Shown: positions 48,971 to 64,000, numbered from the stretch's first letter. The stretch: DNA of 64,000 nt from Blastopirellula sp. (GCA_002701545.1 NZVR01000152.1:8790-72789); one strand, 5' to 3'. Notes: generated from the letters alone by a model not told the origin. Made by a program: numbers and translations.

Positions 48971-49030
48971 ACTGGTAACATACGACTCGGTGCGCGCGAT
49001 CGAGAACATCTTGGATGCAAGGAGACGAAT

Positions 49031-50704
49031 GTGTCACGTCATTCCGTTACGGCGTTGGGCATGGTTTGGCTGGTATTCTCGTCAGTCGGATTTGCCGACG
49101 ACCAGCTGATTGCACATTGGAAGTTGGCCTCCGATGCTCGGGATTCGGTCGGGCAGCACCATGCTATCCAACACGGTGGCGTGGACTTTCAAGAGCAATG
49201 TGCCGTGTTTGATGGCATCGACGGCTGGCTGGAAGTTCCTGCGGTCGATCGTTTGAAGTTGGGTCGCCAGGACTTTTCGCTGGCGATGTGGATTCACACT
49301 GCGCGGCAATTGGACGATGTGCTTGGCGACGTCGTGACGTGTTACGACCCGGAGACGCGCAATGGTTTCAACTTGACTCTGATGAATTATTCCGGGGTCA
49401 CATCCGCTCAATCCAATTGGCGAAATCTTTTGTTTGGTATCGACGCGGGCCAGATCGACTCGGAGTGGAACGACTGTGGCCGTCCGGGGACCAATCAGCA
49501 AGTGAAGTCATTGGTGGTGTACCGCGGCGGTTTGTATGCTGCCGTTTGGGAGCCGGGCAAAGATCAGGCGGGACATGTATATCGTTACGCAGGAGGGACT
49601 CGATGGGTGGATTGTGGTAGTCCGGATCCCGCTAATGCGATGACTGGGATGGCGGTTTTCGATGGCAGGCTGTATGCCGGTTCCGAGTTGTATAGTGGCG
49701 GCGGCTCTTCGTTGCCACTTTCACCGAATGAAAATCACGGTGGACGCGTCTACCGTTATGAGGGAGGGACACGTTGGACAGACGTTGGCAAGATTGCCGA
49801 CGTGCGAAGTGTCAGCGGTTTAGCTAGTTTTCAGGGGCAGTTGTATGCCGGGACAGGGACGACGGGCGCTTGGCGCGATTCGCCGCGGACACGCGGGATG
49901 TATCGTTACGCCGGTGGCGACCAATGGGTCTCCTGTGGCTGCCCTGGGACACGGATTGTGCATTTAAGCGTACACAACGGTTCCCTGTTTGGACTCAGCT
50001 ATGACGATGGTGGCTTCTTTCGTTATCTGGGAGGCACGCGCTGGGAGCAGTTGGGTCCGGTGCCGGATACCACGCAAGTTTACGCGACTGCGGTTTACCA
50101 GGGTCAGATCCACGCAGCCACTTGGCCCACCGGTTCCGTATTTCGATACGAGGGTCCGCAGCAGTGGACCCATACCGGCAGACTCGGCCAGGAAAAGGAA
50201 GTGATGGGCATGGCTGTTTATAACGGCAAGCTGTATGCCGGTACCCTGCCCTTGGCTCGGGTGTATCGTTATGACGGCGAAAATCGTTGGGTCTCCACCG
50301 GGCAACTCGATACAACTCCCGACGTGCGTTATCGACGCGCTTGGGTGACTGCGGTTTATGACGGCAAGCTGTTTTGTGGCGTGTTGCCGTCCGGGCGTGT
50401 TCGTTCGCTGGAGGCTGGTAAGAGTGTGACGTATGACCATGCTTTGCAACCCGGTTGGCGGCACATCGCGGCCGTTCGCAATAAGAACGTTTTGCAACTT
50501 TATGTCGATGGCAAGCGCGTTGCTGTCAGTAGCCGCTTCGCGCCGGAGCAATTCGATCTCGATGCCGGTCAGTCGCTCAAGATCGGTTTCGGGCAACATG
50601 ATCATTTCAATGGCAAGATGAGAGATTTGCGTTTGTATCGCCGTGCGTTGTCAGGTGCGGAAATCGCCAAGCTTGCTCAGGCAGGAGAGGGTTCAAATGA
50701 CTAA
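49031..50704 (+). CDS. Secreted LamG/concanavalin-like lectin-fold protein interrupted by a beta-propeller-like repeat region
   Basis: N-terminal 'AHWKL..DARDSVG...FDGIDGWLEV...DFSLAMWIH' and C-terminal 'LQLYVDGKRVA...FNGKMRDLRLYRRALSGAEI' are the two halves of a LamG jelly-roll. Between them are at least six repeats of the type 'VYRYxGGTRWxxxG...LY(A)G'. Confidence 0.7.
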   Translation: MSRHSVTALGMVWLVFSSVGFADDQLIAHWKLASDARDSVGQHHAIQHGGVDFQEQCAVFDGIDGWLEVPAVDRLKLGRQDFSLAMWIHTARQLDDVLGDVVTCYDPETRNGFNLTLMNYSGVTSAQSNWRNLLFGIDAGQIDSEWNDCGRPGTNQQVKSLVVYRGGLYAAVWEPGKDQAGHVYRYAGGTRWVDCGSPDPANAMTGMAVFDGRLYAGSELYSGGGSSLPLSPNENHGGRVYRYEGGTRWTDVGKIADVRSVSGLASFQGQLYAGTGTTGAWRDSPRTRGMYRYAGGDQWVSCGCPGTRIVHLSVHNGSLFGLSYDDGGFFRYLGGTRWEQLGPVPDTTQVYATAVYQGQIHAATWPTGSVFRYEGPQQWTHTGRLGQEKEVMGMAVYNGKLYAGTLPLARVYRYDGENRWVSTGQLDTTPDVRYRRAWVTAVYDGKLFCGVLPSGRVRSLEAGKSVTYDHALQPGWRHIAAVRNKNVLQLYVDGKRVAVSSRFAPEQFDLDAGQSLKIGFGQHDHFNGKMRDLRLYRRALSGAEIAKLAQAGEGSND

Positions 50705-52205
50705 TCGGATGACTGCCCCGCGGCGATCCATCTCCCGCAGCAGGGTTCTGTCTGCAGGGGTGCTGCTTATCGGTTGGCTGGTTACAGCGCAGGCATGGAG
50801 TGCTGATGGCTTGTTGGTTGGAGTTGCCGAAACGGATGTGACGCCGCCGACGGGGTTTCCGATCGCCGGGTACTACCACGAACGTTTGGCCACGGGAACA
50901 CTGGATCCTCTGAAAGCCAAAGCGATCGTATTTCGCGATGGCGAAACACGTGCTGCGTTGGTGGTGTGTGACTTGGGTGCCATCGCGGCGGACCTCAGTC
51001 GTGAAGTCAGGAACAAGGCGGCTGAGCGTACGGGCATTCCGGTGCAGAATATGGTGATTGCAGCGACGCACTCGCACACCGCACCGGATTATTTTAAAGA
51101 TCTCTATCTGTACTTGGCGGGACGTCAGGATCATAAGTTGCGGAGCGACTACGTTGCCCGTTTGATTGACGGTATTGTGCAAGCCATTGTGGTTGCAGAC
51201 GAGGCAGTCAAGCCGGTGCGGTTGGAGGCAGGGACTGTTCGGCAGCAAGTCCCTGTGGCGTTCAATCGTCGCTTTGTCATGAAAGATGGAACTGCCCGGA
51301 CGTGGGCCAAGCTGACGCAGCCCAATGTGATCCGTGCCGCGGGTCCGATTGATCCACAGATCAGTCTCCTGAAGGTAAGCTCGCCAGACGGACGTTCTAC
51401 CCGTGGCGTTGTGAGTAATTTTGCGCTTCACCTTGATACGGTTGGCGGGCTGAAGTGGAGCGCGGACTATCCTTATTTCATAGAACAGAAGATTCGGCAG
51501 AAATTGGGTGGGGAGGTGGTTTCCCTGTTTTCTACCGGTTGCTGCGGCGACATTAATCATTCCGATCCCACTCGGACGGAACGCAACAAGACCGATTTTA
51601 TCGGGAACGCTTTGGGTCAAACGATGGTCGGTAAGCTGGGAAGTCTCCGACCGCTGGAGGAAACCGAGTTGCGTGTGCATTCGGCGGTTGTCCCGCTTCC
51701 ACTGGCTGAAGTCACGCAAGACCAAGTCGATCGAGCGGTGGAGATTTTGACGGCGGCCAAGCGGCAAGAGAAGGTTGACTTTTATGAACAAGTTGCCGCT
51801 TACAAGCACATCATCCTCGATCAACTTCGCAATCGTTCGCCGCGCGTCAAGCCCGAGGCGTTTGTTTCCTGGGGATTGTCTCACTGTTGGGCGGGCGTCG
51901 GAGAGGCGTTGCCGGTCGAAATCCAGGTGATCGCGCTGGGTGACGAAGTGGCGTTGGTTTGCCTTCCGGGTGAAGTCTTTGTCGGATTGGGGCTGGCTAT
52001 CAAGCAGGGGTCGCCCTTCCGCACGACATTGGTTGTCGAGTTGTCAGGATGCGCGGAAACGTTGTACATTCCCACGCGCGCGGCGTTTGCTCAGGGGAGC
52101 TATGAAGTGACGAACTCGGCATTGCAGCCCGGGGCCGGGGAAATGTTGGTCGAGGGGGCACTGAAGCTGCTGCGTCAGGCCGCGTCTGAGGGTGAATCAC
52201 CGTGA
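50697..52205 (+). CDS. Neutral/alkaline ceramidase-like hydrolase (N-terminal domain family)
   Basis: 'GVAETDVTPPTGFPIAGYYHER', 'ATHSHTAPD' and 'CCGDINH' resemble the non-lysosomal ceramidase family. ATG 50697 overlaps the upstream stop by 8 bp. Confidence 0.7.
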   Translation: MTNRMTAPRRSISRSRVLSAGVLLIGWLVTAQAWSADGLLVGVAETDVTPPTGFPIAGYYHERLATGTLDPLKAKAIVFRDGETRAALVVCDLGAIAADLSREVRNKAAERTGIPVQNMVIAATHSHTAPDYFKDLYLYLAGRQDHKLRSDYVARLIDGIVQAIVVADEAVKPVRLEAGTVRQQVPVAFNRRFVMKDGTARTWAKLTQPNVIRAAGPIDPQISLLKVSSPDGRSTRGVVSNFALHLDTVGGLKWSADYPYFIEQKIRQKLGGEVVSLFSTGCCGDINHSDPTRTERNKTDFIGNALGQTMVGKLGSLRPLEETELRVHSAVVPLPLAEVTQDQVDRAVEILTAAKRQEKVDFYEQVAAYKHIILDQLRNRSPRVKPEAFVSWGLSHCWAGVGEALPVEIQVIALGDEVALVCLPGEVFVGLGLAIKQGSPFRTTLVVELSGCAETLYIPTRAAFAQGSYEVTNSALQPGAGEMLVEGALKLLRQAASEGESP

Positions 52206-52435
52206 CTTTTGGCGAAAGACGCGAAACGAGCGGTGGTCGTTGTGCCCGATTCACCGTGACAGTATCCGGCGTGCCTGCTATTCTCCGGCTGTGATGCTTC
52301 TCCAATTCATGACCCTGATTGACATCTTGCGAGCTTTTCCCACGGTGATCGGTTACGATACGGGTGCGTGCGATGGTCTTGCGCTGCCCAATCGGGTGTA
52401 GTCAATTTCCAGCTTGTTCCGTGGCAGAATGCGAA

Positions 52436-55360
52436 ATGAACGTTTTGCGTTACTTGCTCATATCAACAGTTCTCGTCTTGTGTAGTGCAAGTCTTGGAAC
52501 AACGTTGGCTCAAGGCCCCTCAAGGTCGCCGCGCGAGATAATTAAAGCATCCGAACGGATCATCGAGGGCGATCGCAAGCGAGGAGTCGATACAAAGGCC
52601 AGCATTTATTACTTCTTGTCGAGCGCTCATCTTCAAGTTGGTACGCCTGACGAAGCGTTGAAGGCGATTTTGACGGGGCGAGAAGTTGCAGCAAAGAATG
52701 GCGAAGACCTGGTGACCGCAAATCTGATTTTGCTGCAGTCCGTGGCTTTGAATCAGTTGGATCGCAGCGAGGAGGGGGTCGCCGTCTTACGAGAAGGGTT
52801 GAAGCTGTCTCGTGAACTTGGGAATCGTCGCCTGGAAGTAAAAATGCAGACCGAATTGGGTAGCAATTTGTTCCAGCTAACACAAAGTAGCGAGGCCGTT
52901 GCTGCGTACGGCCGGGCCATCCGGTTGGCGAATGATATTGGTGACCAGGAACTCGCTACGCCAGCCAAGTTGAACCTCGTGACGCTGTTGTCGGACTTCG
53001 CGACGGAAGATATGGCCGTCGATAAGTTGAAAGAGATGCTGCAGCAGGCGAATCGCACAAAGAACCCCCTCTGGCGGTGTTCGATCGAATTAAATCTCGC
53101 ATCTTCTTTGGCTGACGTCGGTCGGTTTGACGAGGCCAAGAAACACATTCGTAGTGTGCAGGAACAGTTGCAGGTCAGTGATAACCACTTTCTGTCAGCG
53201 ACTGCCTGGTTCAACTTGGCAGTGATTTACGAGCATGAAGGGAATGCGGACGCCGCCGCACGCTGTTTGGAGGCCGCGCATTTTCAAGCCCAGCTTGGTG
53301 GCAGGAAGGAACTCTCGGATGCGATTCAGCAAAAGATTGCCCTGAATAACCTCAATAGTATTACGACGCTGGATGCCTTCGTAGGCAACCTCGAAGACCA
53401 GTTAGATGAAAAACCGCCGCGGCAGCGCCGTCGCGAGATCTTGCAGGCACTCGCGGAATGCGAGGCACTGCGGGGTAATTGGCGGCGCGTAGCGAGCTAT
53501 CAAACCGAACTGTACCGGCTGTCCAAAACGCAAAATGTGAAGACGATTCAAGCGGAAGTAAACGACCTGCTCGAGCAGCTCGAAGTACAACAGCGCGAAC
53601 TCCGGATCGCGGTCGAACAATCCGCACGGTTGATTGCCGAGAATCGCGTGGAAAAACAATTGCGCAAGTCGCAGTTGGGCGCGACACGACTCTCCTATGG
53701 CTTGCTGGCAGCCGTCTTATGCTGTGTCACTCTGGTGATTTGGGTGCTGGTGCGACGTGCATTCATTCGACGCTGGACATTGTCCCAAAAGCAAGTTGAA
53801 GGTGTCTTGCGTACGGCTAACAAGACTTGGAAAACTACGTTTGATGCGTTGGATGACGCCGTCTGTACGGTCACCGAGGATGGGAGTATCGAATTATTTA
53901 ACAATGCCTTTGAAGAGCTTTTCAGTGCGAGTCTGCAGCAGCACGCGGACCTGAGCGTTGATGATCTCATCGCCCATTACTTTGACAAAGATGATGTGCC
54001 CTTTAAAGGAATCAGAAAACTACGATATGGAAGTGATGGGTTTGAGAAGTGGTTTCGCATCGACAGACTCGCGTTACCGTCTGGCAGCGAACCTATGGGG
54101 GAAGTCGATTCGATTCTCGTGATTCGCGATGTGTCTGCCGATATCCGAATTCGTGAAACGATGTTGGCGAGTCAGCGTGCGGCCGAAGACGCCACGAAGG
54201 TGAAATCGGAATTCGTGGCGATTGTAAGTCATGAACTGCGCACGCCATTGGCTGCGATCTGCGGTGCGATTGATTTGATCCGTGAGGAATGCGAACTCAC
54301 GGCGGCCAGTGACCCGCTGTTTGATGCGATTTCAAACGCCTCGCTGCGGTTGTCACGTTTGATTGACGACCTGTTGGACTATTCCAGTATTGAGCGTGGC
54401 AAAATCATTTTGACAAATGCTCCGTTCAATCTGGTGCAAACGGTGGAAGATTGTGTACGCCCCATCGCCCACCTGCGACCGGATCTCGACGTGATCCTGA
54501 ATGTGGACAAGCCTGTTCCCAAGTTCTTGTTGGGTGATGTTGTGCGGTACTCTCAGGTATTGTCCAACTTGCTGGCAAATGCTGAACGTGCGACGGACGT
54601 CGGGCGAATCAAGATCAACATTACGGCCAATTTTCCGACGAATCAGGGTGTGGAGTTGGTTACGGAGATTGAGGATACGGGAATTGGCATTCCTCTAGAA
54701 AAGCAACAGCGGGTATTTGAACCTTTTGAGCAGGCAAGTTGTTCTGACCGGCGGAGGAACGGCGGTGCGGGGCTTGGATTGGCGATCTGCAAAAGTCTGA
54801 CTCAAGCGATGGGCGGAGAGATCACGATGGCCAGCGCGCCCGACTCTGGAAGTACCTTTTCTTTTTCCACCCGCTTTGGCATCGTGGACGAATCGAGGGT
54901 GGTGGAAGATGGCGCGCCGGCAGAACAGAGCCAACTCCGCGTCCTGGTGGTGGATGATGATAAGATCTGCCGGATGATCACTGCGCGGCTGGTCGAGAGC
55001 TTGGGACATCAGGTCATGACTGCCGCAAGCGGTGTGGAGGCCATTCAAATGGGCGCGGTCGAACTGGCTACGTTCGATTTGATCATCATGGACCTGATGA
55101 TGCCAGGTATGACCGGCTTTGAGGCAGCAGCCAAGATTCGGACCTGGGCGGCTGCCGACGATTTGCCCATCTTTGCTTTGACTGCGAAGACCGGAGCTGC
55201 TGATCGGCAGACATCCCGGTCAGCTGGGATCAACGCCTATCTGGTGAAACCGTTGACCCGCGACCAACTGGCCGCGAAGCTTGCACTCGTGAATCCGAAA
55301 GTGCGGACTGCTGACCAATTGCAGCAAGAATCGCTGGTCAGTTCGAGAGCGGCAAGCTGA
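52436..55360 (+). CDS. Hybrid sensor histidine kinase/response regulator with N-terminal TPR-like region and PAS domain
   Basis: Signal/TM, a TPR-like helical region, a coiled coil and a second TM (LLAAVLCCVTLVIWVLV). Then a PAS-like segment, HisKA 'FVAIVSHELRTPL', HATPase 'GGAGLGLAICK' and REC 'VLVVDDD...DLIIMDLMMPGM...K'. Confidence 0.9.
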   Translation: MNVLRYLLISTVLVLCSASLGTTLAQGPSRSPREIIKASERIIEGDRKRGVDTKASIYYFLSSAHLQVGTPDEALKAILTGREVAAKNGEDLVTANLILLQSVALNQLDRSEEGVAVLREGLKLSRELGNRRLEVKMQTELGSNLFQLTQSSEAVAAYGRAIRLANDIGDQELATPAKLNLVTLLSDFATEDMAVDKLKEMLQQANRTKNPLWRCSIELNLASSLADVGRFDEAKKHIRSVQEQLQVSDNHFLSATAWFNLAVIYEHEGNADAAARCLEAAHFQAQLGGRKELSDAIQQKIALNNLNSITTLDAFVGNLEDQLDEKPPRQRRREILQALAECEALRGNWRRVASYQTELYRLSKTQNVKTIQAEVNDLLEQLEVQQRELRIAVEQSARLIAENRVEKQLRKSQLGATRLSYGLLAAVLCCVTLVIWVLVRRAFIRRWTLSQKQVEGVLRTANKTWKTTFDALDDAVCTVTEDGSIELFNNAFEELFSASLQQHADLSVDDLIAHYFDKDDVPFKGIRKLRYGSDGFEKWFRIDRLALPSGSEPMGEVDSILVIRDVSADIRIRETMLASQRAAEDATKVKSEFVAIVSHELRTPLAAICGAIDLIREECELTAASDPLFDAISNASLRLSRLIDDLLDYSSIERGKIILTNAPFNLVQTVEDCVRPIAHLRPDLDVILNVDKPVPKFLLGDVVRYSQVLSNLLANAERATDVGRIKINITANFPTNQGVELVTEIEDTGIGIPLEKQQRVFEPFEQASCSDRRRNGGAGLGLAICKSLTQAMGGEITMASAPDSGSTFSFSTRFGIVDESRVVEDGAPAEQSQLRVLVVDDDKICRMITARLVESLGHQVMTAASGVEAIQMGAVELATFDLIIMDLMMPGMTGFEAAAKIRTWAAADDLPIFALTAKTGAADRQTSRSAGINAYLVKPLTRDQLAAKLALVNPKVRTADQLQQESLVSSRAAS

Positions 55361-55534
55361 TACCGACTCGATAACCGCTTGATACGCGAAGTTGATTGGT
55401 TGCCGTGGGCGGTTGGTTTACGGTGCGCGGTGCTCTGCGTTGCTGAGGGCAGCAAAAAAGAGTGCAGCAAAAACTCTCCGTGTGCTCCGGGATCCGTCCA
55501 CCGCGAGGCGTTACGGTCGTGAGCGACGTTGCCA

Positions 55535-56968
55535 TTAAGCCAGGATCTTGGAAATGACCTGACCGGGTTGGCCGTCGAGTAGAGATTCCTCGCGTCGACT
55601 TCGCTGATAAGTAAGTTGTTCCGGGGCGAGTCCCAAAAGCTTCATCAGCGTTGCGTGATAGTCGTAGTGATTGACAATTTCGTCCACTGCATGATGTCCG
55701 AATTCATCTGTCGCACCATGCACGTGTCCCGCTTTGAAGCCGCCTCCTGCAACCCACATGCTGAAGCCGTAGGTGTTGTGATCGCGTCCCACTTTGTCAC
55801 GCCCGGCGTCATTTTGAATCACCGGCAACCGCCCCATTTCCCCACCCCAGTGTACGATGGTGGACGACAATAGGCCGCGTTGTTTCAAGTCGATCATCAA
55901 GCCGGCAATCGGTTTGTCTGTTTTACGGCAGGACGCGGGCAGCGAGTTCAAGATGCCGCTGTGATGATCCCAGTATTGGTTTTTAGTGAACAGCTGGATG
56001 AATCGTACGCCACGTTCCACCAGTCTCCGAGCGATCAGGCAGCGTTTACCATACTCTTCGGTTTCTTTTTGATCGATTCCGTAGAGCCGGTGGGTGGCAG
56101 CGGTTTCACGCGAGAGATCCAGTGCCTCGGCCGCTGCGGTTTGCATACGTGCTGCGAGTTCGTAGTTGGTGATCCGGGCATCGAATTCGGCCCGGTCAGG
56201 ATGGATCTCGGCGTGTTCACGATTGAGCGATTGTAAAAAATCCAGATAGTTGCGTTGTGCCGTTCCGCGCAGGTGCGTGGGGGCTTCTAGATTCAAAATG
56301 CGAGGTTCGCGAGGACGGATGACGGTTCCTTGATACAGCGAAGGCAGCCAGCCATTGGACCAATTCAGCACGCCCTCGACCGGTAAACCTTTGGGGTCTG
56401 TCATCGCCACGTAGGCCGGCAATTCGTCACTTTCCGAACCGAGGCCATAGGTGATCCAGCTGCCCAAGGCGGGTCGACCCCGTTGGGTGCGTCCCGAGTT
56501 CATGGCGTGAATCGACTGACCGTGGTTGTTGACGCCTGTATGCATGGAACGGATGACGGTGATGTCGTCCACAACCTGGGCGAGATGTGGCAGTAATTCC
56601 GAGACGGGCGTACCAGCCTGACCATGCTTGCGGAATTTCCAGGGGCTCCCCAAGATCTTTTTGCTGGCTCCCCCGACATCGTCGTATTTGATTTTGCCGG
56701 GAAAGTCTTGGCCATCCAGGCGAGTCAATGCGGGTTTGGGATCGAGCAGATCGACCTGGCTTGGACCACCTTGCATGAACAACGAGATCATGGCGGTGGC
56801 CGAGGGAGGCTTGGCTGGTGACTTGGCAGACAGCGTGTGCGTTTGCCGTTCCAGCAACGGTTTGACAGGTTCTGCGCGAACTTGACGTTGCTCCAGCCAG
56901 GAGAGTGCCAACGGAGAAAGGCTGAAAGCACTGGTTTGCAGGAAGTGGCGACGTGTCAGGCAACGCAT
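55535..56968 (-). CDS. DUF1501 protein with Tat signal
   Basis: 'TRRHFLQTSAFS', 'FMQGGPSQVDLLDPKP' and 'GGEMGRLP...GRDHN'. ATG at 56968 lies 8 bp after the upstream stop, and the ORF-track N-terminal extension overlaps that gene. Confidence 0.9.
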   Translation of the reverse strand: MRCLTRRHFLQTSAFSLSPLALSWLEQRQVRAEPVKPLLERQTHTLSAKSPAKPPSATAMISLFMQGGPSQVDLLDPKPALTRLDGQDFPGKIKYDDVGGASKKILGSPWKFRKHGQAGTPVSELLPHLAQVVDDITVIRSMHTGVNNHGQSIHAMNSGRTQRGRPALGSWITYGLGSESDELPAYVAMTDPKGLPVEGVLNWSNGWLPSLYQGTVIRPREPRILNLEAPTHLRGTAQRNYLDFLQSLNREHAEIHPDRAEFDARITNYELAARMQTAAAEALDLSRETAATHRLYGIDQKETEEYGKRCLIARRLVERGVRFIQLFTKNQYWDHHSGILNSLPASCRKTDKPIAGLMIDLKQRGLLSSTIVHWGGEMGRLPVIQNDAGRDKVGRDHNTYGFSMWVAGGGFKAGHVHGATDEFGHHAVDEIVNHYDYHATLMKLLGLAPEQLTYQRSRREESLLDGQPGQVISKILA

Positions 56969-56975
56969 GTCTGGA

Positions 56976-59771
56976 TTACTCGATATACAAAAAGCGGTTG
57001 GTGCCGAAGAGTGCCTGGCAATAAGTCGCCAGCGCTGCGCGATGGGCATCGGAACCAGGTGGTGGATTGTTGGTGAAATTCTCAGTTTGCTGCTGTAGGA
57101 AACGGTGTGCCCGAGTGAGCTGGACCTGATCAGGGGGTTGGCCAAAGACCAGTTCCCAGCCGCGCCGTAATTGCTCGAGTGGCTGATCAGGTTGGTCGTG
57201 CAAGAGTCGTTCCGCCAGGGCTGCTGAAGTATTCAAAATGAAATCACTGTTCATCAGCATCAAGGATTGAGGAGCGACGTTGGACGATGCTCGATCCGTA
57301 CAATGGGGAGCTAATTCGGGTAAGTCAAAACTGGCCAACACGCTGAGCGGTCTGCTGCGTCGCACTTGAATGTAGACACTGCGGCGAAACGCTTCTTCGC
57401 CCAAGGGAATTGGCTTGGTCGGTTTTCGTTCGCCATCGAGATTCTCTTTTCCCAGAACGATCTGGCCGACCGCGTCTTCCATCACAGGGACGGGTTCGCC
57501 GTACATCTTGGTACTCAGTTCGCCCGTGAGTGTCAGGATCGCGTCCCGCACGGTCTCGGATTCGAGGCGACGCAAGGGCCACCGCCCCCAGAGTTGGTTT
57601 TCGGGATCTCGTAGCACCAGATCGGCACTGCCAACAGCCGTTTGTTGATACACCCCGGATGACAGGATGCGGCGGTGCAAGTGTTTACTGCTCCACTGGG
57701 AGTCGACGAGTTCGGTGGCCAGCCAGTCGAGAAGTTGAGGATGTGTGGGACGATCTCCCAGGAAGCCAAAGTCGCCAGTGGTGGCCACAATCCCGCGACC
57801 AAAATGATGGGCCCAGATACGATTGGCCAAGACGCGTGCCACCAAGGGATGCTGACCGCTAGTGAGGTAGCGGGCAAATTGCATGCGTCGACCGCTGGAT
57901 TTCAGTTGTGGGTTATCCGGGATCGCCTGGGCTTGCAAGACACTGAGCCCCTGCGGTCGGACTTCCTCGCGAGGTTGTTGATGATCACCGCGATGAAAGA
58001 CAAAGGTGGCGGGGATCGCTCCGGGGGCTTCGTTCAGGACACGTAGGAAGTGTTCTTGGGGGATCGTATCGCGAATCGCTTGTGCTTCGCTGGCCAGTTT
58101 CTTGAGTTCGTCTTGGATGCGAAACGAACGGATTTCGGCAACGGCCGTTGTGTAACGTGCTAATTCCTCCGCGCCTTTAGGGTCGGTTTGTGCCAAAGAT
58201 TTTTCGTCGAGGATACCCGGGCCGTTCTGATTGGCGTCTGCCAACCATGCAGCTAGTTGGTCTGCACGTCGCTGTTCCAAGTCCTTGGCCCGTGCTTCAC
58301 GTCTGCGCTCGTAGAGGTAGAGTGAGCCTTCCGTGATGTTGGCTACGTTGACATGCGATTCCAACAGTTGTTTTTGCTCGGGGGTACGTTTGGCTGCTGG
58401 GGTCTTGAAGGCGGTACGCAAGGGTTGCTGCAATGACGTGTCCACCATGAGCAATTCATGTTCCAACGTCTTGTCGATGAAGAAGGTGACGCGTTCTTTG
58501 CGTCGCGCATCCACCAGCTTGGCTTGGGATTCAATGTCCGTCCGCTGTTGTTTGTCCTGATCGCTATAGAGCGAGACGAGGCGTTGGGAAGGTGTTTGCC
58601 ATTGTTTCCAATTCAGGGCGGGCTCGAAAATCGCACGCAGTTGGTAATAGTCGCGTTGTGGTATCGGATCATAACGGTGGTCGTGGCATTGCGCGCATTG
58701 CACGGTCAGTCCGAGCACCGCGCCGCTGACAATCTGAAGTGTGTCCGCAATGACTTGATTGCGCGCCACGTTTTGATCGATACCAGACGACGCCGTACCG
58801 TCAGGGGCCATGCGCAAGAACCCCGTCGCGGCCAGAGTTTCGATCGTCTCGGGGCTCAAGTCAGTATGTGGCCAACCCGCTAACTCATCGCCGGCCAGTT
58901 GTTCGAGGAGGAACTGCGAGTAGGGCTTGTCCGCATTGAAGGCGCGAATGACATAGTCGCGATATCGCCAGGCATGTTCCCGAACCCGATCTTCGTCGTT
59001 GTAGCCTTCCGAGTCGGCGTAGCCTGCGACATCCAGCCAATGACGCCCCCAACGTTCCCCATAACGGGGTGACGCCAGTACGCGATCGATCAACCGTTGC
59101 CAGGCATCGGGACGCGGGTCAGCGAGAAAACGTTGGATCGCTTCCGGTGTCGGAGGAATGCCGAGCATGTCGAGAAAAATCCGCCGCACCAAGGTTGGCT
59201 GGTCGGCTCGAGGCGAAAGGCCGACGGGCGTTGCCTCCGAGGGAGCGTCTGGCGTGGAGGCGTTCAATTGGTTCAGGACAAATGCGTCGATTCCTTCGTC
59301 GATGGCGAATGAGGTGCTCGGCAACAGGGGACGCGCCACGGGACGAAAAGACCACCAGTTGCGTTCCTCTTGCGTAAAGTAATTGCCAGCGTCGAGAGAC
59401 TCGGGTTCCGCCTTCTCGGTAGGTGCCCCAGCTTGGATCCAGCGTCGCAGAATCGCTACGGCTTCGGGGGCCAGTTGTTTGTCCTGGTCCGGTGGCATTT
59501 CCCCAGCGGCAACACGTTGCAGTAGCAGACTGTTTTCCGCATCACCCGGTACGATGGCTTGGCCGGATTCTCCGCCTTTCAGGATGAAGCGACGCAGACG
59601 CAAATCTAAGCCGGCTTCTGTCACGCCCCGTTCGCCATGACAATGAAAACAGTGTTCTTTGAGTAGCGGGCGGACGTCTTTTTCGTATTGCAGTTCGGTC
59701 GCGCTGACCGTGACACTGACGGCCGCTGTGAACAGGAACGCGTGAAGGATGAGTAGCCGCATCGGAGCCAT
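56976..59771 (-). CDS. PSCyt/DUF1549/DUF1553 family protein
   Basis: 'CFHCHGERG', 'RWGRHWLDVAGYADSEGY', 'CAQCHDHRYDPIPQRDYYQLRAIF' and 'NRIWAHHFGRGIV'. Start ATG 59771 (MAPMRLLILHAFLF, signal-like). Confidence 0.9.
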   Translation of the reverse strand: MAPMRLLILHAFLFTAAVSVTVSATELQYEKDVRPLLKEHCFHCHGERGVTEAGLDLRLRRFILKGGESGQAIVPGDAENSLLLQRVAAGEMPPDQDKQLAPEAVAILRRWIQAGAPTEKAEPESLDAGNYFTQEERNWWSFRPVARPLLPSTSFAIDEGIDAFVLNQLNASTPDAPSEATPVGLSPRADQPTLVRRIFLDMLGIPPTPEAIQRFLADPRPDAWQRLIDRVLASPRYGERWGRHWLDVAGYADSEGYNDEDRVREHAWRYRDYVIRAFNADKPYSQFLLEQLAGDELAGWPHTDLSPETIETLAATGFLRMAPDGTASSGIDQNVARNQVIADTLQIVSGAVLGLTVQCAQCHDHRYDPIPQRDYYQLRAIFEPALNWKQWQTPSQRLVSLYSDQDKQQRTDIESQAKLVDARRKERVTFFIDKTLEHELLMVDTSLQQPLRTAFKTPAAKRTPEQKQLLESHVNVANITEGSLYLYERRREARAKDLEQRRADQLAAWLADANQNGPGILDEKSLAQTDPKGAEELARYTTAVAEIRSFRIQDELKKLASEAQAIRDTIPQEHFLRVLNEAPGAIPATFVFHRGDHQQPREEVRPQGLSVLQAQAIPDNPQLKSSGRRMQFARYLTSGQHPLVARVLANRIWAHHFGRGIVATTGDFGFLGDRPTHPQLLDWLATELVDSQWSSKHLHRRILSSGVYQQTAVGSADLVLRDPENQLWGRWPLRRLESETVRDAILTLTGELSTKMYGEPVPVMEDAVGQIVLGKENLDGERKPTKPIPLGEEAFRRSVYIQVRRSRPLSVLASFDLPELAPHCTDRASSNVAPQSLMLMNSDFILNTSAALAERLLHDQPDQPLEQLRRGWELVFGQPPDQVQLTRAHRFLQQQTENFTNNPPPGSDAHRAALATYCQALFGTNRFLYIE

Positions 59772-59784
59772 GATCAGTTTGCGC

Positions 59785-61119
59785 TTAAAACAGCTGAGGG
59801 ATCGGACGACCGTCTTCCGGGACGATGGGGATCGGTCGACCTCGTGAGTTAGTCCAGTGAGCATGGAGATCGATTCCCAGATGCTTGAACGTTGTGGCAG
59901 CAAGATCTTGGGGACGCACGGCGTCAGTGTTGATCGCGCCGCCACGCGCATCGGTCGAACCAATGACTTGGCCGTGCTGCAAGCCTCCTCCGGCCATGAG
60001 CATGGACATGACATTGGTCCAGTGGTCGCGTCCTGCATCTTTGTTGATGACCGGCGACCGCCCGAATTCACCCATCATCATGACCAGCGTGCTATCCAGC
60101 AATCCTCGCTGTTCTAAATCCTGAATCAAGGTATGTAGGGTGCGATCGACTCGAGGTAGTAAAGGAGTAAGCCCTTTTTCAATACCGCCCCAGCGGACCT
60201 GATCGCCGTGATGGTCGAAATAGCCCCAGGCTCCACTGACCAAGACAAAGGTGACTCCGGCTTCGACCAGACGCCGTGCCAGGAGCGCTTTTTCACCGAT
60301 GCTTTCCTTGCCATAGGCCTGACGAGTCGCGTCTGATTCTTGCCCCAGGTCAAACGCTTGCTGGACATTTCCAGATCGGACCATCTCGTAGGCTTGTCGG
60401 GTAAAGCGATCAACGCGATCGAGGGTGCGGTTGTTGTCGAGTTGGCGACCAAAGCGGTCGAGCTGCTGTTTCAGGGTGTCGCGGTCTTGTAGCCGAGGAA
60501 CGGTCACTCCGGAAGGCATCGCGAATTTGCCTGCTAACTTGTGGCCTTTCACAGGCGCGTAGCGGCTGCCCATGTCTCCTGCTTCCCAGACGTCGGACGT
60601 CCAGGTATTTGCCAGACCGACGAAAGCTGGCATTTCCTCGCTATTCGATCCGCGGAACTTTGCTGCGATGGAACCCATCGATGGGTACCCGCCACCGTCG
60701 CGGCCATCGTTCGTGCGACGTGCCAGTGGATTGCCCGCTTGCATGGTGATCGGCGTGTGATTGCTGGCGCTACAGTCGACCGAGCGGATGATCGACAGTT
60801 TGTCTGCAATACTCGCTTGTAGAGGGAGATGTTCACCGAACTGAACACCGGGAAGTCGGGTGGGAATCACGCCATAAGGTCCGCGGATTTCACTCGGAGC
60901 ATTTGGCTTCGGGTCCCACATGTCGATGTGACTTGGACCACCAGATAGCCAGAATAAAATCACGGCTCCCCGACCCGAGTTCGCGGGCGCTGCTTGGGCG
61001 CCCAAGTTCATCCAGGGGGCAAGTGAAGCCGTACCCATACCTGCCAGTCCGGCTTGCAACAGCCAGCGCCGTGAACCAACGCGGATAGTCGGCGAACTCG
61101 AAGAGGTTGGAGGGAGCAT
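59785..61119 (-). CDS. DUF1501 protein with Tat signal
   Basis: 'SRRWLLQAGLAGMG', 'FWLSGGPSHIDMWDPKP' and 'MGEFGRSP...GRDHW'. Confidence 0.9.
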   Translation of the reverse strand: MLPPTSSSSPTIRVGSRRWLLQAGLAGMGTASLAPWMNLGAQAAPANSGRGAVILFWLSGGPSHIDMWDPKPNAPSEIRGPYGVIPTRLPGVQFGEHLPLQASIADKLSIIRSVDCSASNHTPITMQAGNPLARRTNDGRDGGGYPSMGSIAAKFRGSNSEEMPAFVGLANTWTSDVWEAGDMGSRYAPVKGHKLAGKFAMPSGVTVPRLQDRDTLKQQLDRFGRQLDNNRTLDRVDRFTRQAYEMVRSGNVQQAFDLGQESDATRQAYGKESIGEKALLARRLVEAGVTFVLVSGAWGYFDHHGDQVRWGGIEKGLTPLLPRVDRTLHTLIQDLEQRGLLDSTLVMMMGEFGRSPVINKDAGRDHWTNVMSMLMAGGGLQHGQVIGSTDARGGAINTDAVRPQDLAATTFKHLGIDLHAHWTNSRGRPIPIVPEDGRPIPQLF

Positions 61120-61330: not shown

Positions 61331-61372
61331 AGAAGAAACGCTCCTGATCTGAGAATTCAGACCAGGAGCGTT
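61331..61372 (-). terminator. Probable intrinsic terminator of rsr
   Basis: On the minus strand, 21 nt after the rsr TAA: AACGCUCCUGGUCUGA-AUUC-UCAGAUCAGGAGCGUU, a 16-position stem with one mismatch and a 4-nt loop. It is followed by UCUUCU. Confidence 0.55.
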
Positions 61373-61393: not shown

Positions 61394-63034
61394 TTACAGC
61401 TCAATCGACTCGACTTCGCGGACGAACCTTGCGGCATCGTCGCTCAGGTACGAGGCGACGACGTGGAACACCGCGTCACTGAAGCCACCGATGTTCAGGA
61501 TATCGTCACGTTCCGGAGCTTGTGTCGATCCGTACGGCTGGACGTCGATGCAGACCAGCTTTGGCGAGCGTGTCCCCATCCGCTGCTGGTTTGCTACGAA
61601 CGCCTGCCACTCGGTCAGGACGCCCGTTGCACTCCGGCCGCCGTAAGCGAACGGTCGGTCACTGTCGATCCAACTCTCGTTGTCGCTGACCAGCACCACG
61701 CCCGCGAACGTTCGCTTGCGGTACTTGGTGTTTGCCTGATGCAGCGGGGTGGAGCAGTCGGTTCCACCGCCACCGTAAGTCGCCAGCCGTTCCGACAGAC
61801 TCAAGATCGAGTCGGACGGATCGATGCGGACGTCGTACGCTCGCGTGTCAAACGGAATGACCACGCTGTCCGGGTTCTTACGCAAGATCGCCGCGGCGAA
61901 CAGGGCCGCCACGTCGACACAGCGCATCTTGGTCGTGCCACCTCGAGCACCGTAACCCGTAATCGGGCAGCTCATCGAACCGGATGTATCCAGACCGATG
62001 ACCACCGGGCCCGGCAGCTCCGGCACATTGCCGCAGGCGATCTCGGCTGCGCGATGCAGCGCCGTATTGATCTGGTGCGGAAGTTCCGGGGCGGCGTTCA
62101 GGTACGCAGCCAAGAACTGGTACGGGAACTGGCGTGAGCGGCGGATCGCATGTGCATCCGTCAGGCGACTTGCCACGTAACTGACCATCTCCCGCCCTGC
62201 CTTATCGCTCGTCAGCACCTCGTGACGCAGGAGCGTGTTGAGATTCATCCGCAGCGCCTGAGGTCCCATCTGGCGAGCGATTGCCTTCCAGACCAGCGGC
62301 CCCTTGGCAGCGTCAGCCAGCAGATCCCAGCGTACAGACAGGTGACCCGCAATCCGTGCCTGGGCTTGAGCGGTAGTCGCCTGGCGGTACGCGATCAAAC
62401 CCTGGACTTGCGCCGGCAGGTCAGTTGCGTTGGCCGGAGCCCACTTTTCGATCTCCTTGCCCGTTAACCAACCGAACAGCGCACGTCGCGCGTTGTCCCG
62501 CGGGGTTGGTCGAGCCAGCCTGAGGACATCGCGCAGGCTCGGATCGTTACCGATCGAAGCCGACAGCAACTGATTCACGGACGCTTCGTTCAGCCATCGC
62601 TGGAACGCGCGCTGCAGGCTGGACGACAAGCTGGTGCGACCGAACTGTCCTGAGCGGATCATCTGGAACATGGTGCGCAGCACGCGACCGTTATCCACGA
62701 CCCGATCAAACGTCCGGTGCAGTAGCTCGGTGTCACGCTTGGACAGCACGACCAACAGCGCCGCTGGCATGTCCTTCATGTAGGCGCGTTCCCGGGCGTA
62801 GACGGCCAGCTTGGCCAGGAAGACGTTGTCGTCGACCTGATCGATCAGCGTGCGCATTTCGTCTAGCTGGTGTTCGGCACGGGTGTAGTAGGTGCCGTTG
62901 AAGCAGCCGGTGGCAGCCATCTGGGCCAGCGCGTGCTTGGGAGTGAACTTGTACGCCCGACCTCCAGCCTCGTTGACCGTATTGGTCCGCACGAACCGAC
63001 TCTTGATACTGGAAAACAAAGTCTTGTTGGCCAT
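61394..63034 (-). CDS. rsr: Ro60/Rsr orthologue (TROVE domain + C-terminal vWA domain)
   Basis: '[44 protein letters not shown]' is the conserved bacterial Ro60 N-terminus. HEAT-like TROVE repeats follow. The C-terminal vWA has the MIDAS motif '[11 protein letters not shown]'. ATG 63034 is preceded by GAAGGAGG (63039-63046). The ORF-track TTG at 63049 is not needed. Confidence 0.9.
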
Positions 63035-63047
63035 CGTGACCTCCTTC

Positions 63048-63120
63048 AAAAATGACCCGACGAAATCTTGGGTGCAGAGACTCGGCTGGTGGTGTTGGAC
63101 TCCGCGCCGGCAGTCGGATC
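63048..63120 (-). ncRNA. Candidate Y-RNA-like unit Y3 (short form, no T-arm), ending in U5 directly before the rsr RBS
   Basis: Closing helix GAUCCGAC (63113-63120) / GUCGGGUC (63054-63061), 8 bp with one G.U. The shared 5' motif UGCCGGCGCGGAGUCCA follows the helix. The 3' side is AUUUUU (63048-63053), abutting GAAGGAGG. Confidence 0.4.
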
Positions 63121-63129
63121 GTGGACGCG

Positions 63130-63277
63130 CACTCGACGAAGTTGTGGGGTAGAGCGAATCCCTGCGAAGCCGCGCACGCGCGGTTCACAGGGTCCGGCCC
63201 CATCGATAGATTTCTCTGAGGGGGCCGGGCGGGAATCGAACCTGCTAAGCCATGGACTCCACTCCGGCAGTCGAGTG
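63130..63277 (-). ncRNA. Candidate Y-RNA-like unit Y2 with a tRNA-like T-arm and loop-closed acceptor-like helix
   Basis: Closing helix CACUCGAC (63270-63277) / GUCGAGUG (63130-63137), perfect 8 bp. D-like arm GCC-GGAGUGGAGUCCAU-GGC. T-arm GCAGG-UUCGAUU-CCCGC (63229-63245, one A.C mismatch). An 8-bp hairpin CCGGCCCC (63221-63228) / GGGGCCGG (63194-63201) follows with a 19-nt loop, then a further stem CCCUG...CAGGG enclosing CCGCG-CGUG-CGCGG. Confidence 0.45.
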
Positions 63278-63319
63278 TGTTTTGTGTGCCGACAGACGCT
63301 GTCTGCCGGAGCGTGTTTT

Positions 63320-63467
63320 AAAAAAATGACCGACGAGGTGTTTGAACCAGAGATTGACGATGCTCTGCCTTTGAGCTACGGCGCTACGTGCTGAAGTCGC
63401 GCCGGTGGGACTCGAACCCACAACCTTCGGGTAATGAACCATGGACTCCACTTCGGCAGTCGGTCAT
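63320..63467 (-). ncRNA. Candidate YrlA-type Y RNA (unit Y1): circularly permuted tRNA mimic with terminal U7
   Basis: Closing helix AUGACCGAC (63459-63467) / GUCGGUCAU (63326-63334), perfect 9 bp, then U-tract to 63320. Inside: T-arm GUGGG-UUCGAGU-CCCAC (63405-63421). Next comes the acceptor-like helix CGGCGC (63399-63404) / GCGCCG (63379-63384), closed by a 14-nt loop. Then U-A plus a canonical D-arm GCUC-AAAGGCA-GAGC (63362-63376). Confidence 0.5.
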
Positions 63468-63475
63468 ATCGGGGT

Positions 63476-63592
63476 GGCGACGAAGTATCGGTCAGATACG
63501 TTTCCATTGCTGCACGGGACTCGAACCCGTCAACCGAGTGCGGTTGCCAGACTCATTGAGCAGAGCCGATGGATTCCGATCCGGTCGTCGCC
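63476..63592 (-). ncRNA. tRNA-like unit Y0 (7-bp acceptor-like helix + ACC, long variable arm, T-arm, extra hairpin)
   Basis: GGCGACG (63586-63592) pairs with CGUCGCC (63476-63482), followed by ACCCC. D-like arm CCG-GAUCGGAAUCCAU-CGG. Stem GGCUC/GAGUC with an 8-nt loop UGCUCAAU. Variable-arm-like hairpin CAACCG-CACU-CGGUUG. T-arm ACGGG-UUCGAGU-CCCGU (63514-63530). A 31-nt insert containing GUAUC-UGACC-GAUAC precedes the 3' acceptor strand. Confidence 0.4.
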
Positions 63593-63617
63593 GTGTTTTT
63601 TCAAGTGTTTCCAAAGG

Positions 63618-63698
63618 CACTCAACGAAGTGGTATCGAGACGGTGCTTATGGCACCAGGTTCACAGCCTGGGATGGAGTCCCGACGGGCAGTTGAGCA
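63618..63698 (-). ncRNA. Candidate Y-RNA-like unit X (short form, no T-arm)
   Basis: Closing helix UGCUCAAC (63691-63698) / GUUGAGUG (63618-63625), 8 bp with two G.U. Shared 5' motif UGCCCGUCGGGACUCCAU. Internal hairpins CCAGG-CUGUGAA-CCUGG and GGUGC-CAUAA-GCACC. Confidence 0.35.
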
Positions 63699-63706
63699 TC
63701 GATGGC

Positions 63707-63784
63707 GACCTTCCAACGAAGGAATGGCTCAGATACGTTTCAGCTCCCAAAGTTGATGTAATCCGAACCGACAGTTGGTTGGTC
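63707..63784 (-). ncRNA. Candidate Y-RNA-like unit W (short form), starting 2 nt after the tRNA-Cys-like gene
   Basis: Closing helix GACC-AA-CCAAC (63774-63784) / GUUGG-AA-GGUC (63707-63717): 5 + 4 bp around an AA/AA internal loop. Shared 5' motif UGUCGGUUCGGAUUACAU, plus the GAAACGUAUCUGA motif also present in Y0. Confidence 0.35.
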
Positions 63785-63786
63785 AG

Positions 63787-63857
63787 AGACGCAGGTGGGA
63801 ATCGAACCCACTTCCACTGCTTTGCAGGCAGTTGCCTGGCCATCTGGCTCCCGCGCC
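63787..63857 (-). tRNA. tRNA-Cys(GCA)-like gene (cloverleaf complete, non-canonical G8/G14, no encoded CCA)
   Basis: Acceptor GGCGCGG/CUGCGUC (7 bp, two G.U). D-arm GCC(A)-GAUGGCC-(A)GGC with A13.A22. Anticodon arm ACUGC-CUGCAAA-GCAGU (anticodon GCA at 63823-63825). 4-nt variable loop. T-arm GUGGG-UUCGAUU-CCCAC (63795-63811). Discriminator U, as expected for tRNA-Cys. Position 8 is G rather than U. Confidence 0.55.
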
Positions 63858-63933
63858 ATTGTATGTGCAAAAAAGTCCTTCCTCGTTGGCCTTCCTGGTT
63901 AGCGTTTCGTCAGTTTGCTTGTTTCGAGGCGAG

Positions 63934-64000
63934 TAGCCCGTCCAGGAATTGAACCTGGTCCAACAGCTTCGGAAGCTGTCATGCGATCCAACACACCCAC
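63934..64000 (-). tRNA. tRNA-Arg(CCG)-like gene, 5' end beyond the window edge (partial)
   Basis: Anticodon arm ACAGC-UUCCGAA-GCUGU (anticodon CCG at 63970-63972). T-arm CCAGG-UUCAAUU-CCUGG (63942-63958). 3' acceptor strand ACGGGCU + discriminator A. The D-arm is weak (GUGU/GCAU with two G.U), and the acceptor 5' strand is not visible. Confidence 0.5.

Follow-up and report, generated by a model that had tools for sequence, protein, structure and literature searches.

Bacterial Y RNAs, the small RNA partners of the Ro60 orthologue Rsr, are encoded beside rsr on the same strand; they bind Rsr mainly via the 5' strand of a stem formed by their two ends, the other end of the RNA tethers Rsr to an effector such as PNPase, and at least one Y RNA per species mimics a tRNA (PMC4201824; bioRxiv 10.1101/312249). 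In Deinococcus radiodurans, a polycistronic precursor encoded upstream of rsr gives rise to Yrn2, a tRNA-Asp and Yrn1, in Mycobacterium smegmatis YrlA and YrlB derive from one precursor upstream of rsr, and YrlA carries tRNA-type modifications (pseudouridine 55, dihydrouridine) and is recognized by tRNA enzymes (PMC4201824). Here we describe the rsr locus of a Blastopirellula sp., located at one end of a stretch of 64,000 nucleotides (GCA_002701545.1, NZVR01000152.1:8790-72789; hereafter the window, with positions counted from its first nucleotide). The region at 63054-63778 on the minus strand, upstream of rsr, very probably represents six distinct Y RNA genes whose products would bind the Rsr protein encoded downstream. 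An earlier note on this DNA had proposed a planctomycete Y RNA locus here, and an expanded one; the former is supported by linkage, by covariation and by the YrlA likeness of one unit, UC, and the latter by the six units found here, though the expansion is clade-wide and reaches 11 units in relatives.

The layout corresponds to an enlarged known plan rather than a new one, since the D. radiodurans and M. smegmatis precursors are precedents for it (PMC4201824). As at the D. radiodurans rsr locus (Yrn1, Yrn2, tRNA-Asp and the small RNAs a, b and d), small RNAs and a tRNA gene lie upstream of rsr on the rsr strand, some of the RNAs possess T arms, and a long stem formed by the RNA ends holds the Rsr site, which is a predicted one in the window (PMC4201824). 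The D. radiodurans locus has two confirmed Y RNAs and three further small RNAs, compared to six units here and up to 11 in relatives; Yrn1 and Yrn2 exhibit a metazoan-like GGUCCGA-type helix, whereas all units described here share a UGCC loop, a GGA/UCU helix with a G.U wobble, and UMCAU; and the upstream tRNA is a single gene in D. radiodurans, as opposed to the end of an array of 10-39 genes in planctomycete relatives. M. smegmatis likewise has two confirmed Y RNAs against the six units of the window. The present locus thus differs from those of both species in the number of units, the consensus of the putative docking module, the variety of tRNA-derived modules and, in relatives, the tRNA array.

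Mycobacteriophages with Ro60 also carry large tRNA sets. Y-like RNAs just upstream of Ro60 genes have been reported for mycobacteriophages and the Thermus phage phiLo (PMC4201824; PMC12135203). The window locus resembles these in having Y-like RNAs upstream of a Ro60 gene, and one related block occurs in a contig classed as viral; it differs in possessing six units (six to eleven with relatives considered) rather than one or two, and in being flanked by ordinary chromosomal planctomycete genes. By the published definition, long tRNA arrays (L-arrays) contain 20 or more tRNA genes, with no fewer than 2 per kb (PMC4758250), and such arrays have been recorded in Planctomycetes (PMC4758250, PMC8421152). 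In relatives of the window locus, 20-39 co-oriented tRNA genes with spacers of ~10 nt similarly lie directly upstream of the units; the difference is that here Y RNA genes carry on from the array and rsr ends it, and the window shows the last two tRNA genes before the units. Neither of these array papers refers to Ro60, TROVE or Y RNAs next to the arrays (PMC4758250, PMC8421152), and the consulted passages of a planctomycete genome paper are likewise silent on them. The survey of YrlA RNAs by Chen et al. from 2014 reportedly comprises 254 species with a predicted YrlA. A full-text literature search for Y RNA, Ro60 and Planctomycetes in combination returned nothing, and a single predicted planctomycete YrlA may stand in the supplementary list of that survey.

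Six structured units upstream of rsr

Six units, designated U0, UA, UB, UC, UD and UE in their order from a tRNA-Cys gene to rsr, were delimited by their shared ends between the tRNA-Cys gene and the ribosome-binding site of rsr. Each unit starts with ..YRAC-UGCC-(4 nt)-YGGAN-UMCAU and finishes with NUCUR-(about 10 nt)-CYUC-GUYR. The 5' motif CRAC-UGCC-GRNN-YGGAN-UMCAU and the 3' motif NUCUR...CYUC-GUYG occur six times each, in agreement with the motif repetition described in the earlier note, while CUGUGAACC and GAAACGUAUCUGA are present twice each. A covariance model of the shared stem (R1), built from 45 real units, identifies exactly the six paralogous units that had been proposed and returned no seventh site on either strand of the 64-kb window at E values up to 10; the six are located 20-745 nt upstream of rsr. 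The spacers, from tRNA-Cys to UE, measure 7, 16, 27, 10, 52 and 14 nt, and the previously given range of 2-42 nt is corrected to 7-52 nt.

The first and last 5-8 nt of each unit are complementary to one another and differ among units. The module that the units have in common is ordered as a terminal stem of 6-8 bp, an internal loop formed by invariant UGCC and CYUC, a second helix NGGAN/NUCUN of about 9 bp with an invariant G.U in its GGA/UCU core, and UMCAU. A coding function was considered and rejected, as the open reading frames in the ~950 nt upstream of rsr are short and overlap in several frames, which confirms an earlier observation, and as homologous units differ by insertions or deletions of 1-2 nt; what the region holds is a series of structured RNA genes. 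As in bacterial Y RNAs, the units are located near rsr on the same strand, and their ends pair into a long stem suited to a Ro60 site. We favour reading the units as six Y RNA paralogues because they fit the known plan of bacterial Y RNAs point by point.

Conservation and covariation of the shared module

A scan with the Rsr protein, limited to one genome per species, yielded 80 planctomycete loci whose Rsr is 66-88% identical to that of the window. A weight matrix for the 5' motif, derived exclusively from its six copies in the window, was scanned over these loci (857 kb) and detected 393 sites on the rsr strand (375 upstream of the gene, 18 elsewhere) and 25 on the opposite strand. R1 produced 383 matches in the 80 loci at E<=0.01, and among the matches listed all 300 of 300 are on the rsr strand.

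In alignment A5, made up of the best 150 copies, pairing holds in 97.4% of cells, compared to 25-49% with slid partners. Double changes were observed in 7 of the 11 pairs, i.e., in five of the six pairs of the terminal stem and in the two outer pairs of helix 2. The outer helix-2 pairs alternate between G-C (77), C-G (45), U-A (11) and A-U (5), and the inner G.U, G-C and A-U pairs of this helix are nearly invariant. In nine copies the G.U wobble (columns 17/199; for example G63762-U63730 in U0) gives way to the isosteric A.C and in four to G-C, its only replacements, a pattern that would be expected if the wobble geometry itself were recognized. Helix 2 can be extended by at least three more pairs, a bulge being allowed, in 138 of 149 copies, compared to 80.5 +/- 4.5 with shuffled partners. 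Furthermore, U8 G9 C10 C11, G18 A19, U21 A22 C23 A24 U25 and C-Y-U-C-G are 96-100% conserved, and the unpaired and wobble positions of the module, which hardly vary, resemble a surface recognized by a protein. Conserved helices upstream of rsr in related genomes, whose absence would have refuted the reading of the earlier note, are present, and the shared stems covary across the 150 copies. A GGAG-CUUC pairing beside the terminal stem, noticed by eye, was discarded, being unsupported by UB, UC and UE.

Architecture of the individual units

The inner modules, all on the minus strand, comprise one permuted tRNA mimic (UC), two other carriers of a T arm (UB and UD) and three plain hairpins (U0, UA and UE). 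All five T-arm hairpins reported previously were found at the coordinates given for them, three of them in UB, UC and UD and the other two in tRNA genes. Numbers of compensated pairs for U0, UA, UB, UD and UE are from MAFFT-based alignments.

Among the short units, U0 (63713-63778; 66 nt; R1 score 62.7 bits) begins 7 nt after the tRNA-Cys gene and consists of the terminal stem CCAAC/GUUGG and a 9-bp helix, GGUUCGGAU/AUCUGAGCC; across 31 homologues, five of its eight predicted pairs show double changes. UA (63620-63696; 77 nt; 52.5 bits) has the terminal stem CUCAAC/GUUGAG, the helix GUCGGGAC/GUCUCGAU and two small inner hairpins, and 4 of its 14 pairs are compensated in 14 homologues. UE, whose full 8-bp closing stem spans 63054-63120 in the minimum free energy fold (R1 score 47.4 bits), has a core of 61 nt at 63057-63117 and is formed by the stem GAUCCGAC/GUCGGGUC, UGCC, and the helix GG-C-GCGGAG/CUCUGC-A-CC, followed by AUUUUU (63048-63053); nine homologues provide compensation in 6 of 14 pairs. 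These short units are similar to the YrlB-type hairpin Y RNAs, and they lie upstream of rsr as in M. smegmatis.

UB (63476-63592; 117 nt; 49.9 bits) combines the terminal stem GGCGAC/GUCGCC with an inner module of three consecutive hairpins, the last of which is the T arm ACGGGUUCGAGUCCCGU at 63514-63530. In this non-permuted order of hairpins and T arm it resembles Yrn1 of D. radiodurans; 7 of its 30 pairs are compensated in eight orthologues. UD (63132-63275; 144 nt; 49.4 bits), for which blastn found 13 orthologues, has the terminal stem CUCGAC/GUCGAG, an 8-bp hairpin, a long interrupted hairpin, and a T-arm-like hairpin (GCAGGUUCGAUUCCCGC, 63229-63245) with an A.C mismatch in its stem; RNAalifold predicts 36 pairs, 11 of which are compensated.

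UC (63328-63465; 138 nt; R1 score 44.4 bits) is the only unit with the permuted tRNA-like architecture of YrlA. It is composed of the terminal stem GACCGAC/GUCGGUC, a V hairpin, a 3-bp closing stem, the T arm GUGGGUUCGAGUCCCAC at 63405-63421, and a closed 6-bp acceptor-like stem (63399-63404 paired with 63379-63384), which is followed by UA and by the canonical D arm GCUC-AAAGGCA-GAGC at 63362-63376, the D arm noted previously. The T loop UUCGAGU, the GG of the D loop and a UA resembling U8-A9 are all present. Across 50 homologues aligned with MAFFT, 96.4% of cells are paired and 17 of 33 pairs exhibit double changes, compared to 35-47% and at most seven pairs in slid controls. By helix, the T arm is 100% and the D arm 94.5% paired, and the acceptor-like stem is 100% paired with compensation in four of its six pairs, as is the case for all three pairs of the closing stem. 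The YrlA-like character of UC is supported by its plan and the covariation of its helices. A CCG/YGG mini-hairpin that RNAalifold placed in the 5' motif of UC was rejected, as explicit pair counts favour helix 2.

UC has in common with the YrlA RNAs of Salmonella Typhimurium and M. smegmatis (RF02553) the motif GNCGAAN0-1G, the V hairpin, the T arm, the UA linker and the D arm; its closed acceptor-like stem is of 6 bp, as in Salmonella YrlA, and is flanked by the predicted Rsr-binding stem. The Rfam alignment differs in omitting the planctomycete Rsr-binding stem, and the window has three tRNA-related paralogues of unlike architecture where YrlA is one. Unlike in Salmonella, the window locus is without an rtcBA operon or RtcR context.

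Several results weigh against the assignment of these units to the Y RNAs. In the search with the bacterial Y RNA models of Rfam that the earlier note had recommended, UC matches YrlA with 39.8 bits (E 4.8e-7 in a local 1.1-kb search), and at permissive thresholds over 62900-64000 this is the sole non-tRNA Rfam family with signal, but the gathering score of 69 is not reached by UC, and the gathering score is reached by none of the units. Among ten related loci searched against Rfam, no YrlA was found at threshold, while 136 tRNA matches were. Of the published 5' motifs, GNCGAAN0-1G or GGUCCGA, an exact copy (GCCGAAG) is limited to UC among the six units, the other five having GCCGG, GCCCG, GUCGG or ACCGG; the family consensus at this site, U-G-C-C-G-R, is related to the published motif, not identical to it. 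UE as a single sequence folds no more stably than its shuffles (z +1.35), and its structure is derived from comparison. A5 was fitted to the model, which favours pairing, a bias that is offset by the slid-partner controls and the MAFFT-based tests. Finally, a sigma-70 promoter scan of the minus strand returned none, and planctomycete promoters may not fit the consensus.

Distribution of the units and tRNA arrays in relatives

Units and tRNA-Cys genes were counted at the 59 loci whose upstream sequence covers 2.5 kb or more, and tRNA arrays at the 43 loci with a full 6-kb flank. In a conservative matrix scan, the 59 loci possess 1-11 units each (median 5), with 11 in Stieleria marina (strain K23_9); for Novipirellula sp. 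SH528, nine units are predicted. The tRNA gene before the first unit is tRNA-Cys(GCA) in 37 of them, and the gap between the two is 4-6 nt in 35 of the 59. The order tRNA-Cys, U0, UA, [extra unit], UB, UC, [extra unit], UD, UE, rsr describes the synteny of the window with the two closest of the related loci, L001 and L013. The window is without the ~174-nt unit that both carry between UA and UB. Its units are 75-95% identical to those of L001 and L013, with compensated replacements of stems such as GGCGC/GCGCC by ACCUCC/GGAGGU. The 52-nt spacer between UC and UD (63276-63327, minus strand; fold z -2.96) contains A-U7 straight after UC and then a 9-bp hairpin at 63289-63309. It is probably the remnant of a lost and decayed seventh unit, since its 3' part aligns with the CUUCGUYGG end of the extra L013 unit in an alignment of L001, L013 and the window.

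ARAGORN detected co-oriented arrays on the rsr strand in the 6-kb flanks of relatives, the largest containing 39 (L036:77-4950), 36 (L013:1297-4972), 31 (L042:122-3890), 29 (L001:1401-5087) and 26 (L079:1100-4182) tRNA genes. At least ten tRNA genes were found in 15 of the 43 full flanks, at least 20 in eight, and none in ten; the L-array definition of at least 20 genes at no fewer than 2 per kb applies to eight of the 43 relative loci when the 6-kb flank alone is considered. The arrays have spacers of ~10 nt and usually end in ...Arg-Arg-Cys(GCA), with the Y-like units as a 3' tail, and in many relatives most units are located 1-2.4 kb from rsr or among tRNA genes. The expansion is clade-wide and not special to this genome, and the units constitute a real, clade-wide family of divergent and expanded genes, predicted to encode Y RNAs, that are physically joined to tRNA arrays in relatives.

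The edge of the window lies 143 nt beyond tRNA-Cys, and the window includes two tRNA genes, both on the minus strand: tRNA-Cys(GCA) at 63786-63857 (ARAGORN; 50.4 bits with the Rfam tRNA model), with U73 as discriminator and CCA not encoded, and a probable tRNA-Arg(CCG) at 63934-64000, whose 5' end is cut by the window edge. The latter scores 30.9 bits over model positions 6-71, above the gathering score of 29, and its anticodon loop UUCCGAA indicates Arg-CCG; Arg tRNAs precede tRNA-Cys in relatives too. Their T arms are GUGGGUUCGAUUCCCAC (63795-63811, tRNA-Cys) and CCAGGUUCAAUUCCUGG (63942-63958, tRNA-Arg). These genes had been described as merely tRNA-like, a description which no longer holds: both are cloverleaf genes above the RF00005 gathering score with an anticodon, tRNA-Cys also being called by ARAGORN, and are ordinary tRNA genes. 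Matches to mascRNA and IMPDH, obtained with Rfam at permissive thresholds over 62900-64000, overlap the tRNA genes and were dismissed as being at chance level.

The association with tRNA genes raises the question of whether the units are functionless, decaying or rearranged tRNA pseudogenes that end a horizontally acquired tRNA array. Three units have T-arm hairpins and one a D arm, the units directly follow tRNA genes and in relatives end or interrupt large arrays, and the window contains the probable remnant of a lost unit. Yet UGCC, GGA/UCU, UMCAU and CYUC-G are non-tRNA features that are near-invariant in 150 copies, three units are without any tRNA-like part, and stems have changed in a compensatory manner across genomes whose Rsr is as little as 66-88% identical to that of the window. 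Furthermore, the units track rsr and not the arrays: the ten full-flank loci without a tRNA gene within 6 kb do have units. Such purifying selection and covariation contradict decay, and the pseudogene explanation is considered highly improbable.

Of note, the second position of UMCAU is C in five of the six window units (UCCAU, or UCCAA in UE) and A (UACAU) in 309 of 363 units elsewhere. The same A to C change is seen in five of six units of locus L030 and four of five of L027, and 283 of 10000 shuffles reach five in one locus. This concerted change looks like gene conversion or co-evolution with Rsr, a shared partner.

Certain genomes carry two rsr loci (L023/L024, L051/L058, L013/L041, L046/L061, L070/L074 and L020/L026), among them those of strain SH139, Rhodopirellula maiorica SM1 and the metagenome-assembled genome HK-STAS-PLAN-18; most of these loci have Y-like units of their own, L020 with one unit only. 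At locus L004 a second group of units is situated downstream of rsr.

A related block was also observed in the IMG/VR contig IMGVR_UViG_3300049594_000559, which is classed as viral (L153:8566-13216; L083:1-6610). It comprises 32 tRNA genes with interleaved Y-like units, followed by an rsr gene (68% identical), and the contig encodes an HNH-repeat protein, two ParB-like proteins and a large serine recombinase, with a collagen-repeat protein, glycosyltransferases and methyltransferases upstream. A scan of viral contigs with a 14-base pattern proved too loose, giving 120 matches of which nearly all were single chance ones and two contigs were real. The tRNA - Y - rsr block may at times sit in a mobile element or provirus.

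It could be argued from this contig, where the block lies beside serine recombinase and ParB-like genes and a homing-endonuclease-associated repeat protein, and from the reported horizontal spread of long tRNA arrays (PMC8421152), that the repeats themselves are mobile-element parts, i.e., attachment sites, miniature inverted-repeat elements or homing-endonuclease targets, which travel with the tRNA array. The copies, however, are not dispersed and none occurs elsewhere in the 64-kb window; the units are restricted to rsr loci as far as seen in the window and the related loci, have one orientation and differing inner domains, and covary in the manner of RNA, including the change of G.U to A.C, while the window genes beyond rsr are ordinary planctomycete genes. 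Repeats of this nature are a scarcely plausible source of the units.

The rsr gene and its leader

The product of 61394-63034 on the minus strand (546 amino acids from the ATG at 63034) is a Ro60/Rsr orthologue, and the identification made in the earlier note is borne out by Pfam domains and a structural match: the protein matches TROVE (E 4.6e-11), the HEAT-repeat ring domain, and vWA_Ro60 (E 8.9e-15), and its translation contains the MIDAS motif DTSGSMS. The closest solved structure is that of D. radiodurans Rsr (2NVO; E 1.5e-21), which aligns over the full length (residues 18-529), followed in the ranking of the Protein Data Bank by phage, human and Xenopus Ro60. The mechanically defined open reading frame opens at a TTG at 63049, and the Shine-Dalgarno sequence GGAGG (63040-63044, minus strand) belongs to the ATG at 63034, 5 nt before which it ends. 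Just past the rsr stop codon, a 16-bp terminator-like hairpin followed by UUUCUUCU was found by fold computation at 61337-61372 on the minus strand (-29.3 kcal/mol, z -5.4, with none of 200 shuffles equally stable), which is likely the 3' end of the transcription unit. The promoter and terminator scan missed this clear rsr terminator and was not used to define transcripts.

The GGAGG of rsr starts 3 nt past the U-run of UE and ~9 nt past its closing stem, and the arrangement ...GUCGGRUC-AUUUUU-GARAGGAGG-N5-AUG recurs in most related loci. The geometry of this U-run may reflect the 3' end of the RNA array, attenuation of read-through into rsr, or repression by Rsr of its own translation. One may ask whether some or all of the units, UE at the least, serve as a cis-acting structured leader of the rsr mRNA and bring about autoregulation, either because Rsr blocks the ribosome-binding site ~10 nt downstream or by attenuation of transcription through the closing stem and U-run. 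The 8-bp closing stem of UE, AUUUUU and the adjacent GGAGG, the conservation of their geometry in most relatives, and the lack of a predicted promoter between array and rsr all speak for such a role. The position of most units 1-2.4 kb from rsr or among tRNA genes in many relatives instead fits independent RNAs, and the M. smegmatis Y RNAs upstream of rsr are released from a precursor and bound in trans (PMC4201824). A cis-acting leader is judged unlikely; for UE it is compatible with a Y RNA identity, and the two are not fully exclusive.

In ten loci (L020, L025, L035, L040, L045, L051, L054, L058, L066 and L076), the last 125 nt before rsr are without the arrangement of unit, U-run and GGAGG; they have instead a CU-rich leader (...CAAACUUCACCCUUCAC...AAACUU...AUG) without a Shine-Dalgarno sequence, and most of their Y-like units are situated ~0.5-2 kb farther upstream.

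Genes neighbouring the locus

The genes on the low-coordinate side of rsr include those of the DUF1501, PSCyt/DUF1549/DUF1553 and histidine-kinase types. The segment 55535-61119 on the minus strand contains two DUF1501 genes and one PSCyt1/DUF1549/DUF1553 gene, a typical planctomycete pairing; the mechanical open reading frames 56976-60071 and 59785-61119 overlap by ~290 nt, and the true start of the former is probably farther downstream. RtcB and RtcA were sought in the ~13 kb scanned beyond rsr (about 48000-61100) and neither was found, in line with the statement in the earlier note that no rtcB/rtcA-type genes lie alongside.

Proposed function and implications

The genes follow one another on a single strand at intervals of 7-52 nt, from tRNA-Cys to the ribosome-binding site of rsr, and no recognizable sigma-70-type promoter separates them; co-transcription of the locus is therefore most likely. 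The tight packing and the fixed 4-7 nt junction with tRNA-Cys suggest that co-transcription is combined with release by RNase Z and RNase P, so that one tRNA - Y RNA - rsr transcript, or a few, would be processed by these enzymes and other endonucleases. Each RNA would then close via its 5' and 3' ends and present one common protein-recognition module, which, by analogy with D. radiodurans and Salmonella, may dock on the outside of the Rsr ring. Through its variable domain, each RNA would link Rsr to differing partners or substrates (PNPase in the known cases), and one Rsr protein could in this way give rise to six different ribonucleoproteins.

A more tentative idea, to which we assign a small though appreciable chance, is that rsr, its Y RNA array and the long tRNA array found upstream in relatives together make up one functional and sometimes mobile module against damage to tRNAs or translation. 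Such a module would combine a spare inducible set of tRNAs with a Ro60 particle served by 6-11 interchangeable Y RNA adaptors, several of which mimic tRNA; through these, the particle would bring in nucleases that remove RNAs, damaged or misfolded tRNAs among them. It would represent a 'replace and clear' counterpart of the 'repair' operon of Salmonella, rsr-yrlBA-rtcBA, which is induced by damaged tRNAs. In addition, the locus would preserve the route from tRNA genes to Y RNAs within the array, an idea that stems from the presence side by side of permuted (T - acceptor - D) and non-permuted tRNA-derived modules.

Annotation based on Rfam at present misses all of these predicted Y RNA genes. 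Earlier genome papers seem to read such units as degraded tRNAs, and some of the degraded-looking tRNAs of the planctomycete genome literature may well be Y RNAs bearing a T arm. With regard to the roles of bacterial Y RNAs beyond Rsr-PNPase tethering and the reason for their tRNA mimicry, the six to eleven paralogues offer a naturally occurring test case of how adaptors diversify. Complete genomes exist for several carriers that are in culture (Stieleria, Novipirellula, Neorhodopirellula), and in these strains the RNAs, their processing and their partners can be studied directly. The fusion to long tRNA arrays, whose role is debated, joins two poorly understood features and suggests testable ideas on tRNA quality control in these bacteria.

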